Assembly (NCBI RefSeq): GCF_988243305.1
Contig: NZ_OZ547136.1
Length of the DNA stretch: 64,000 nt
Reading direction: 5' to 3' (one strand)
Shown: positions 58,001-61,000 of the stretch, in pieces
Layout: the number at the start of each line of letters is the position of its first letter
Numbering within the stretch: the stretch's first letter is position 1
Made by a program: the position numbers

Positions 58001-61000
58001 TCTCCGCAGGCATGATAACCAGAGACAACCGGAGCAGTTATACCAGAGAAATGCCACAGGATAAGCATCTTGTCGGCAAGATATTTACCCGGCGCATTGA
58101 GCGCAACAATCTGACACTTCGTACTCACATCAAACGACCTGCCCGGAAAACGATTTGCTTTTTACGCTCCCTGGAAATTCACGAAAAGCCATTGGTTCAT
58201 TTATCGAAAACACATGTACTACTGACAGGAGTCATTACCAGGGCCTCTTTTGCTGTTTTTTTGCCATGAATGATAATGAGAATCGACAGCGATAAGGGAA
58301 AAGTAAAATAACACTAATGCTGTCGTTTTCTATCATATTGATTTTTAATTATTTATTGTCTTTTTTCTCAACCCATTTTTTTACGCAGACAAATTTACCC
58401 GGGGAATACAAACTGTAACGACAGTTCACCACACTATGGGGGATAAAATGCCAGATCAATCCGGACACTGCAGGACTCCTTCACGCATCTTACGGATGCC
58501 TGAACTGAGCCAATTGTTAGGTATATCTCGTTCGACAATTTACGAAAAAATGAATCCGTTATCGAAATACTACGATGCAACCTTCCCCAGGCCGGTACGT
58601 CTTGGTAGTGGTTCTGTGGGCTGGCGTTCATCAGCTATTGACGAATGGCTTACTTTACATACTGTACCTGCCAGATCAGCAGTCAAAGGTGTTAATGACG
58701 AAGTGAGACATACGCTTTCTTCAGATATGACCATGAGCAGATAAGTTTTTGTCATCACGTGATCACCTCAGGAGGAAAAAGAAGCATAAGAACAATTTAG
58801 CCAGAAGTTTAATTGATAAACAAAATTTCCAGCATTCATTGTTGAAAGAGCAGCTATTGTCGCTATTGTCGCTATTGTCGCTATTGTCGCTATTGTCGCT
58901 ATTGTAGCGGTAATTGCTGCTATAACCGAAACGTATTATGAAAAAGGAAGCATTTATGCCTTACATCAAACCGGATATGCCGTATTCAGTATATGCATGA
59001 CCATCAATGATAGGGAAGGCAATAATTAAAGCTCAATACAATAAACAAGTACCTCTGACTCTGGTTGCAATGTCAGTATTAACAGCGATGTCAATTGCCT
59101 GTCAGAATCAGGTTGACGTATGCAGTCCCGGAAATTTACGTGGGGCCGTTAATATTTACACTATGGTTCTGGAGAAAGGGAAAAGACCGGGGGAAAGGTA
59201 TTAGTGAAATAATTTCCGGAGGTATTAAGAATGAGAAATATGAATGATATTTCGTGGTGAATAATACAGTCTTCACTGAATTAACCTTATCGGTTTATTA
59301 AACATCAGATCTACAAATGCTCTGTATTTCTCAGAGCATCAGGTCTGAATAGCAGCTATTTTCGCTATTGTAGCGGGATTTGCTGCTATTTTACTAACCC
59401 ATTAATGAAAAGAGAGGCTTTTATGTGCTTACTTGCACCAGAAAATCCTTATCCGATATATGCACTACCACCGCTGGTGAGAAATGCAATAATTGAAACT
59501 CAAAAAAATACACAGGCACCTTTGGCTATGGTGGCAACATCCGCATTAACAGCGATCTCAATTGCCTGTCAGAATCAGATTGACGTGTGCAGACCTGGAA
59601 ATTTACATGGGCCTGTTAATCTTTACTCTCTGATTCTGGCTGATTCCGGTGAAAGGAAAACGACCGTGGATAAAGTGTTTATGAAAGCATTTTATCTCAG
59701 GGATGAAGCCCTGGCGGATGAATACGCGAAACTGGTTGAGAATTACAGTACAGAAAAGGAAATATGGGAGCAAAAACAAAAAGCGCTGGAATCAAAATTT
59801 CATAAAGAGATTCGTGCCGGTAAAGATTACAAGGCAACAGAATCAGAGCTTGAAACGCATCTGAATAAACCTCCTGTTCCGCCGCAGATACGTCGAACAA
59901 TTTTTAATGAGACAACGATAGAGGGAATGTTAAAATATTACTCCGATAGCAATCGCTCTTTTGCTCTTGTATCCAGTGAAGGGGGGGTAATTTTTGACAG
60001 CCGGGCCATGAGTAAACTGGGAATTATTAACACTTTGTGGGATGGAGGTTCTCTTTTCATCGACAGGAAATCATCTCCCGGAATTAATTTGAAGGAGCCA
60101 AGACTGACGATATCGGTGATGATTCAGCCTGATGTTTACCACAAAGGTTTTTGTACGCGAAAAAAAGAAATTGTGAAAACGTCAGGACATCATGCAAGGT
60201 TTTTGATGTGTCAACCAACATCAACGCAGGGGACAAGGATAATAACCGGAGATAATTATTCATCACAGTATCAGGATTTGTTTGAAGAGAGGATCAATGA
60301 GCTTATTGATGAAAGTCTGGCGATGAGTGGTGAACGACGTTGCCTTCACTTTTCTCCTCAGGCTGCCAGAATCTGGACGGATTATTACAATGATGTGGAA
60401 TCGAAGCTGGGGGGATTGGGGCCTTTAAGACATTGCCGGGAATATGCTGCTAAAAATGCAGAGTATATGGCAAGACTGGCAGGACTTATTTACCATTCGA
60501 GCGGTGAAGAGGGGGAGATTTCCCCTTACACTGCAGAAATGGCGAGAGAATTAGCAATATGGTACGGTAATGAGTATGTGCGGTTGTCTAATCCGTTAAC
60601 TTTTGACAACTCTGCCCTGACCGTACCTGTGCGACTCATTCCAGAGGAGCTTGAACTTTTCAACTGGATAAAAAGCTATTGTATTGAGAAGGGGATCCTC
60701 TGTATGAAAAAAAATGACATTTTACAGCGTGGTCCGAACCGTTTCCGGAAAAAGGATAAAATCAACTGGTTACTGGATTTACTGTATGAACAAAACAGAG
60801 TTGTACCGGTTATTGAGGGAAAAACGTTGTGTGTCGCACCTAACTTTGACCTCTGAACGACTTAATCGTTGAGTACATATAGTCTCCTCTGCTACTTGCG
60901 GAGGAGACTAATGTCTTTACCATGTCAGCGTTGTATTAGAAAACTCTGGTACAGGTCAGTCAGTAAATATAACTGGTGTAACCACTATTTACTATTGGAT

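Follow-up and report, generated by a model that had tools for sequence, protein, structure and literature searches.

What, if anything, is the role of a stuttering 9-bp repeat that stands together with a broken gene copy in front of an intact gene for a DUF3987 protein? The question is raised by a stretch of 64,000 nucleotides of Escherichia coli DNA (contig NZ_OZ547136.1 of RefSeq assembly GCF_988243305.1), which is called the window hereafter. An initial annotation had described both features upstream of the intact gene, yfjI, and had proposed that the repeat may be a binding array of AlpA or of a replication protein. Our analysis shows that the repeat is an expansion within one arm of a palindrome of about 36 bp, that the broken copy goes back to a tandem duplication, and that the palindrome accompanies yfjI far beyond E. 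coli. Most likely the palindrome is a candidate cis-acting site for the binding or loading of YfjI, judged by a structure model of the protein and by analogy with other island-encoded helicases. We consider the chances about even that the explanation is correct as a whole, that is, with an old tandem duplication, an array made by slippage and a palindrome serving as a YfjI site. By themselves the stutter and the dead gene fragment are ordinary, the fragment being already present in the annotation of the Prokaryotic Genome Annotation Pipeline (PGAP) and the array a rare slippage variant. More useful is a compact, conserved palindrome travelling with an uncharacterised helicase gene, a context that probably adds a new member to the class of island modules made up of helicase and origin. 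The features of the locus are as follows (L numbers denote loci used for comparison; HTH, helix-turn-helix).

58448-58744, plus strand: alpA-type HTH regulator gene of 98 aa, 'type C' (Pfam Phage_AlpA, E=5.6e-19; PGAP coordinates taken from strain 3059)
58846-58925, no strand: leader 1, the upstream ('orphan') copy of the palindrome with an expanded left arm; core GCTATTGTAGCGG at 58898
58853-58906, no strand: 9-bp tandem array of variable copy number, five times GCTATTGTC plus GCTATTGTA
58956-59270, plus strand: yfjI' pseudogene fragment, with strong homology to 59204 and weak homology to about 59270
59278-59322, plus strand: alpA' 3'-end remnant at the duplication junction, aligning to type-B alpA (L003)
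59350-59388, no strand: leader 2, the gene-proximal palindrome TAGCAGCTATTTTCGCTATTGTAGCGGGATTTGCTGCTA, i.e. TAGCAGCTATTTTCGCTA TTG TAGCGGGATTTGCTGCTA
59423-60856, plus strand: yfjI, coding for a DUF3987 / MCM-like helicase with a C-terminal winged helix; the longest open reading frame runs from 59405

Slippage in one arm of a palindrome produced the array

Tandem Repeats Finder reports a period of 9 with 5.9 copies and 100% matches at 58853-58905 (score 106). The tandem array described initially at 58853-58906 is therefore confirmed as such, with the proviso that six copies are reached only if the variant last unit GCTATTGTA is counted. The motif GCTATTNNNGCTATT occurs six times in the window, confined to the two leaders, against 0.25 occurrences expected from shuffled sequences. 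The 9-mer corresponds to the direct repeat GCTATT-n3-GCTA(TT) inside one arm of the palindrome, whose full form is GCTATT-n3-GCTA followed by TAGC-n3-AATAGC; it thus consists of four GCTA(TT) blocks, two of them direct and the next two inverted. In genomes with only two copies of the unit, leader 1 reads GAGCAGCTATTGTCGCTA TTG TAGCGGTAATTGCTGCTA.

Compared with the O103 strain RM8385, the window has one clean insertion of 36 bp, corresponding to four units, with identical flanks. For a census of copy numbers a query of 211 nt across the array was used, which matched 1,031 E. coli records; the spans of the matches (211, 202, 193, 184 and 175 bp) correspond to n=6, 5, 4, 3 and 2 units on backgrounds of at least 99% identity. 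Two units were present in 46 of 60 evenly spaced rows of the census (≈77%), four units in seven, three in five and six in one. The four-unit form makes up the band of 90-95% identity (131 records), five units were found in about nine records, and none of the records exceeded six. Besides the window, the six-unit form was seen in one RefSeq complete genome, NZ_CP103559.1 (strain 3059, human blood, Houston), which is 99.1-99.9% and not 100% identical to positions 58300-61000 of the window; the window accordingly represents another, closely related isolate with six copies, or else a different assembly. A longer query of 678 nt over both leaders returned the same differences of 18, 27 and 36 bp, so that all length variation must reside in the upstream copy; it is confined to 58780-58990, and leader 2 is constant in every sampled genome. 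Only the upstream copy slips because its repeat is near-perfect (GCTATTGTC followed by GCTATTGTA), whereas the downstream repeat is less perfect (GCTATTTTC followed by GCTATTGTA) and unexpanded.

The array is thus a slipped-strand expansion of a two-unit direct repeat that forms part of the left arm in palindrome 1. The ancestral and common state is that with two copies, and the forms with three to six copies arose recently on almost identical island backgrounds. Since six copies are nearly unique and two are the norm, we prefer to regard the array as a by-product of recent date and not as a functional array; any effect of the six copies is probably small or modulatory rather than that of a designed binding array. 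Counting of repeat copies across related elements accordingly gives a split result, in that the array is absent from them and the two-copy core is not. In the same way, the proposed binding of a replication protein is not plausible for the array itself, with six copies rare and recent and two common, but is plausible for the parent palindrome. A small hydrophobic peptide encoded by the repeat (GCT-ATT-GTC, Ala-Ile-Val) was considered and rejected, as neither leader provides a start codon in this frame and stop codons enclose leader 2 on both sides.

An old tandem duplication left a second palindrome

The segments 58889-59172 and 59355-59639 are 75.4% identical over 285 bp with one gap, a similarity beyond chance (E=5e-62). 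Beyond a 10-bp deletion the homology becomes weak and extends to about 59270 and 59750, respectively. The upstream segment, which includes yfjI', is a decayed copy of the leader and of the first ~85-105 codons of yfjI, in agreement with the degenerate, frameshifted copy of about 85 codons that had been recognised initially. Its lesions are an in-frame TGA at 58998-59000 and the 10-bp deletion after 59170, which shifts the frame and removes part of the Walker A segment (LADSGERKT). Read in the frame of the gene, the fragment yields MPYIKPDMPYSVYA, a stop, PSMIGKAIIK..., NIYTMVLEKGKRPGERY and two further stops. PGAP calls a 65-aa 'DUF3987' open reading frame (ORF) in it at 59007-59204, which covers only positions 1-42 of the Pfam DUF3987 family. 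The gene downstream is intact, as had been stated, and the shorter repeat-bearing sequence in front of it is found at 59350-59388; its start, however, is more likely the ATG at 59423, used by PGAP and located behind the sequence AGAGAGG, than the ORF-maximal ATG at 59405.

The initially proposed segmental duplication can be specified by its junction. The alpA' remnant aligns to the last ~35 nt and the stop codon of the 'type-B' alpA (L003-L005) with a score of 21.5, compared to 8.8 ± 1.4 for shuffled sequences (maximum 16.5). The event was a head-to-tail tandem duplication with a period of 466 bp, the unit of which comprised the last ~35 nt of type-B alpA, the leader and yfjI to about codon 95-110. 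The resulting layout is alpA, palindrome 1, yfjI', alpA' remnant, palindrome 2 and yfjI; a single-copy layout (alpA, ~95-128 bp, yfjI) is present in strain CFSAN004176 (L005) and in K-12. The alpA gene of the window itself is of a different type (98 aa, common to L006); it must have replaced the former gene in a later recombination event that reached as far as the left edge of leader 1. A foreign donor of the fragment, i.e. the yfjI of another island, was rejected, since the full-length yfjI genes of E. coli do not exceed ~77% identity to it and a duplication in place is simpler.

The upstream fragment is present also in islands that are only 80-87% identical to the window. A joint alignment with four lineages gave identities of 78-87% between fragments, of 67-77% between a fragment and any copy of the gene, and of 84-98% between genes. 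The fragments cluster together and not with their own genes, which indicates a single old duplication before the lineages split. Between the window and L003 the fragments are 86.7% and the genes 97.9% identical, and the lesions of yfjI' differ among lineages; this faster divergence, together with the lineage-specific lesions, identifies the coding fragment as a pseudogene. Within its weakly homologous tail (59218-59260), a Shine-Dalgarno sequence GGAGG (59218-59222) stands 8 nt before a mini-ORF of nine codons (ATG AGA AAT ATG AAT GAT ATT TCG TGG TGA, MRNMNDISW). It is kept in L003 and L004, with a synonymous change and another stop codon, and not in L006, and could be a chance product or a leader peptide.

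The palindrome of the fragment has fared differently from the coding part. Comparison of the fragments with each other gives 94.3% identity (198/210) in the orphan palindrome, as against 82.8% in the spacer and 80.3% in the decayed coding sequence. The palindromes of fragments and genes are 85.5% identical to each other, and each keeps its own diagnostic differences, which means that ongoing gene conversion does not explain the conservation. It seems that, from the duplication, selection keeps the second palindrome rather than the gene fragment.

The palindrome accompanies yfjI across Proteobacteria

The same element precedes every yfjI start and every fragment compared, in the family of the window in the form TAGCAGCTATTnTCGCTA TTG TAGCGGnAnTTGCTGCTA. 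Islands similar to that of K-12 in many genera of Enterobacterales have a cleaner palindrome, such as GCTATTTCCGCTA TTAA TAGCGGAAATAGC in Escherichia albertii and GCTATTTTTGCTA TTTG TAGCAAAAATAGC in Citrobacter. Elsewhere in the 64-kb window the motif was not found beyond the two leaders. When 23 unique instances are compared pair by pair, hardly any change is seen in the inner GCTA and the outer GCTATT blocks; changes do occur in the spacer of three bases and at the outer positions, but in both arms together. Variation is greatest in the loop (TTG, TTAA, TTTG, TTAG, CCGA, CGTG, AAAA and others).

In 26 of 36 full-length loci the palindrome lies at most 600 nt from yfjI. These loci belong to many genera, including Pseudomonas, Rugamonas and Undibacterium, the YfjI proteins of which are only ~30% identical. 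The position is not fixed: in Pseudomonas (L025) the palindrome lies 320 nt upstream of yfjI, and it immediately follows the gene in Rugamonas (L026), Undibacterium (L027), Pectobacterium carotovorum (L028), Rahnella (L035) and a metagenome-assembled genome (L042). Both arms carry the variant CTGCTACGAATGCTAC in L027, and those of L028 are 24 bp long. A search of IMG/VR with the motif alone gave seven hits, of which four are members of the family, all 70-520 nt from a YfjI homologue; the other three are non-symmetric and without YfjI nearby. One of the four (L048) has the order yfjJ, HTH gene, palindrome, alpA and yfjI.

The other genes of the neighbourhood are less constant. An AlpA-like gene is absent beside yfjI in L025 and L028, where the palindrome is present, and elsewhere the palindrome comes after three dissimilar types of AlpA-like HTH genes. 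YfjJ is absent within 2.5 kb in L025, L026, L028 and L035. As AlpA and YfjJ are missing at some of the palindrome loci, yfjI is the sole constant partner. The association of palindrome and yfjI extends over Gamma- and Betaproteobacteria, whether the site precedes the gene or immediately follows it, and whether alpA or yfjJ is present or absent. Tracking of yfjJ by the palindrome was considered too and turned out to be uninformative, since yfjJ occurs in loci with and without the palindrome.

Two further observations were made at these loci. A DUF6387 gene stands in the place of yfjJ after the palindrome of P. carotovorum (L028:3826-4779) and Rahnella (L035:4100-5116), and its product may take over the function of the Gp2-like protein. 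Furthermore, yfjI loci without the GCTATT palindrome, or with the palindrome upstream, often have a different, AT-rich palindrome just after the yfjI stop (L020:3946-3985, L043:3922-3951, L044:3979-4012, L011:3965-3998). That of L020 has 20-bp arms, TAACAATAAAAGGTAACCAT and ATAGTTACCTTTTATTGTTA, with 19 of 20 positions paired and one mismatch. Such palindromes could be subfamily-specific sites of the same kind, or simply terminators. Among YfjI homologues on plasmids, that of Psychrobacter is found on a plasmid with a RepM of its own and that of Legionella among cargo genes; both are without the palindrome. Neither the motif strings nor a reported function of YfjI were found in the searchable literature.

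A candidate binding or loading site for YfjI

DUF3987 proteins have been described as MCM-like superfamily 6 replicative helicases with a C-terminal winged HTH (PMC4889955), and one of them, AgaPH, is an active 5'-3' helicase (PMC11724360). YfjI itself is modelled with an MCM-like fold and a C-terminal winged helix in its predicted structure. In staphylococci, the Rep proteins of pathogenicity islands (SaPI) and Cch2 of the cassette chromosome SCCmec are self-loading island helicases, the C-terminal domains of which bind short iterons in the intergenic region adjoining their genes (PMC7581432). The present locus has the two corresponding parts, namely a gene for a helicase of replicative type with a separate DNA-binding domain and, beside it, conserved short repeats in intergenic DNA. 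We assume that YfjI would bind the palindrome through its C-terminal winged helix and would assemble there, the palindrome being the replication origin of the island and/or the operator of YfjI itself. The arrangement of the four blocks as inverted pairs would suit a head-to-head assembly. On this assumption the duplication may have been kept since it supplies a second copy of the site, and the six-copy array would add direct GCTATT blocks and move the outer left arm 36 bp from the dyad centre.

Several points weigh against this assignment. Most of the yfjI loci were retrieved through YfjI itself, so that the association with the palindrome is partly circular and the independent test comes down to four hits; in 10 of the 36 loci the motif was not found within 2.5 kb. 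The flanks of the palindrome are 5-15 percentage points richer in A+T than the background in some loci and not in others, which is a weak and inconsistent signal. In the recognition region of the winged helix the only change is Q to K in L027, with no clear covariation with the variants of the palindrome. A simple origin model does not account for two maintained copies of the site. Finally, two properties would also fit an RNA element: G.U wobbles are present on the sense strand in all nine copies of the window family (9/9), the sense strand being more stable than the antisense strand, and a short T-run follows leader 2.

If the palindrome is indeed a loading site of YfjI, it offers an experimental handle on whether the 'cryptic' CP4-57-type defence islands replicate after excision, and on the role of yfjI, a y-gene of K-12. 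The natural variants with two to six copies and the layout with two palindromes would then represent ready-made test alleles. A more far-reaching proposal, which is speculative and in our estimation improbable, is that the CP4-57-type islands (in about one quarter of complete E. coli genomes, and in K-12) might be autonomous replicons after excision, by means of YfjI loading at the GCTATT palindrome. In that case the second palindrome and the variable array would form a control locus similar to iterons, adjusting replication or the incompatibility of related islands by titration or handcuffing.

Alternative explanations

The strongest alternative for the window's own family, and one that we consider unlikely, takes the palindromes for intercistronic terminators or attenuators in an alpA-yfjI operon, one at first and two since the duplication, which would silence yfjI until AlpA antiterminates. 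A precedent exists in Pseudomonas aeruginosa, whose AlpA acts as a processive antiterminator (PMC7969949). Co-transcription is implied by distant relatives, in which the two genes abut. The hairpins on the sense strand are strong (-20 to -26 kcal/mol, z -3.2 to -4.8; leader 2 -24.6 kcal/mol, z=-4.7), the exception being leader 1 with n=6, which folds no better than shuffled sequences (z=-0.7). Leader 2 passes a lenient terminator scan with the tail TATTTTACTA, and the advantage of the sense strand through G.U pairs points in the same direction. However, a T-run is absent after leader 1, after the K-12-type copies and after all distant copies, and the G.U bias comes down to one or two shared ancestral positions and not to many independent events. 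The stem blocks are invariant across genera, a conservation that terminators do not need, and the element is also found upstream of alpA (L048) and in the alpA-less loci L025 and L028. Rfam 15 returned noise matches only (22 bits, compared to gathering scores of 50-110), so that no known RNA family agrees with the element.

Improbable in our judgement is also the binding of AlpA that had been suggested initially, according to which Xis-like monomers of AlpA would bind the GCTATT direct repeats and thereby regulate yfjI or shape the DNA for excision, the six-copy array strengthening the binding. Winged-helix proteins of the excisionase type often bind direct repeats, the site is located directly downstream of alpA in all islands of Enterobacterales, and a weak promoter-like match (TTGAAA-16-TATTGT) overlaps the array. 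A promoter scan of the leader region, however, gave weak promoter-like matches only, at the rate of shuffled sequences. The same palindrome follows three dissimilar types of AlpA and occurs without any AlpA-like gene, as described above, and while the known target of AlpA is intA, neither in the window nor in K-12 was a copy found near the integrase gene or its promoter. The palindrome is unlike the AlpA element of P. aeruginosa (GGGACGN5GGTA), which is the sole one defined, and nothing similar to that motif was found in 58745-59422. Moreover, the 9-bp spacing is off the helical phase, and the array is rare (n=6 in 1 of the 1,031 records). We therefore do not retain the interpretation as an AlpA binding array.

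Very doubtful is the assumption that the palindrome is a selfish or neutral (e.g. self-correcting) hitch-hiker of yfjI, and that the duplication and the array are neutral accidents. It is true that the coding fragment is clearly decaying and that the array behaves as a plain slippage polymorphism. The blocks, however, are conserved across classes of Proteobacteria in which the surrounding intergenic DNA is unalignable, and the orphan copy has remained conserved to 94% next to neighbours at 80%.

Least probable of all is a hairpin that serves as rolling-circle nick site or double-strand origin for the inovirus Gp2-like YfjJ with YfjI as accessory helicase. Origins of the HUH/Rep type typically contain a hairpin of conserved sequence, yfjJ is present at every checkable Enterobacterales palindrome locus, and at two loci (L027, L042) the palindrome lies between yfjI and yfjJ. 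Nick sites, however, are normally most conserved, whereas here the stems are conserved and the loop varies most, and yfjJ is missing from the four loci named above. A possible likeness between the f1 nick region TTTAATAGTGGA and the centre of the K-12-type palindrome TTAATAGCGGA falls into this most variable part and was treated as chance.

Genomic context of the locus

The window is from E. coli, and the region under study belongs to an integrase-led island beside dgcT/pgaABC. The order of genes in the island is integrase, a 605-aa hypothetical protein, an IS1 remnant, the AlpA-family HTH gene, the 65-aa 'DUF3987' ORF, yfjI, yfjJ, a TOTE-type primase remnant and genes for large ATPases. Two of these genes are added to the above features:

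54130-55332: integrase gene
61677-62240, plus strand: yfjJ (YagK/YfjJ, 'inovirus Gp2-like', PGAP name), downstream partner in the module

The core of integrase gene, alpA, yfjI and yfjJ is that of the cryptic prophage CP4-57 of K-12, and a related segment is present in ~1,400 of 5,426 complete E. coli genomes. Pfam matches of YfjJ are weak for the copy of the window and strong for the K-12 homologue; NCBIfam gave no matches for YfjI, YfjJ, AlpA or the 605-aa protein. A search of positions 50000-64000 of the window for tRNA and tmRNA genes found none next to the integrase gene. As the island abuts dgcT, the attachment site is either not the usual tRNA/ssrA target of CP4-57-like elements or is located outside this stretch.

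Upstream of alpA, a frameshifted IS1 transposase remnant (~57533-58225) separates this gene from the gene for the 605-aa protein and is present in all close relatives of the island type. An 18-bp tandem repeat (TTGTTCTTTACTCAATAC, 1.9 copies, 94% match) is located at 57154-57187, near the 5' end of the 605-aa gene on the minus strand. Downstream of yfjJ, at ~62395-62730, PGAP names a 'TOTE conflict system archaeo-eukaryotic primase', which is a frameshifted remnant in the window and in strain 3059 and is full-length in O103 RM8385. An archaeo-eukaryotic primase and a DUF3987 helicase form the usual pairing described for replication modules (PMC4889955); the TOTE-type primase beside yfjI nonetheless carries the name of a defence component.

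Comparison with known systems

With bacterial variable-number tandem repeats that arise by strand slippage, the array shares perfect head-to-tail units and differences of whole units between near-identical sequences. It differs from frame-shifting contingency loci in that its unit of 9 bp is a multiple of 3 and non-coding, and no phase-variable phenotype is known for it.

The P. aeruginosa system of AlpA, its binding element ABE and terminator tB resembles the present locus by an AlpA-family gene directly upstream and by a hairpin before the regulated genes. The ABE, however, is situated in a promoter and its sequence is unrelated to the palindrome (PMC7969949); in the loci compared here most hairpins are without a U-tract and some are without alpA.

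In its layout, the palindrome may be compared to site II of the SV40 large T-antigen and to the site of papillomavirus E1, as four short blocks are arranged as inverted pairs in a dyad of ~30 bp. In the viral sites this layout is suited to the head-to-head assembly of two helicase hexamers. The likeness concerns the layout of the site alone: the proteins are unrelated, those of the viruses belonging to superfamily 3 and having the origin-binding domain at the N-terminus, and the AT tract beside the present palindrome is weak.

The closest counterparts are the Rep-ori of SaPIs and the Cch/Cch2-ori of SCCmec. Those islands have two sets of iterons that flank an AT-rich region, whereas here a single compact GCTATT/GCTA palindrome of 30-50 bp, situated upstream of the gene in Enterobacterales, is a candidate origin only. 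The helicase is of the DUF3987 family and not DUF927 or D5-like, and the hosts are Proteobacteria. Common to both, however, is a helicase of the hexameric type that is encoded by the island and has a C-terminal domain for double-stranded DNA, together with direct and inverted repeats in the intergenic region adjoining its gene, which in the staphylococcal islands is downstream of the gene, as in six distant loci of the present study.

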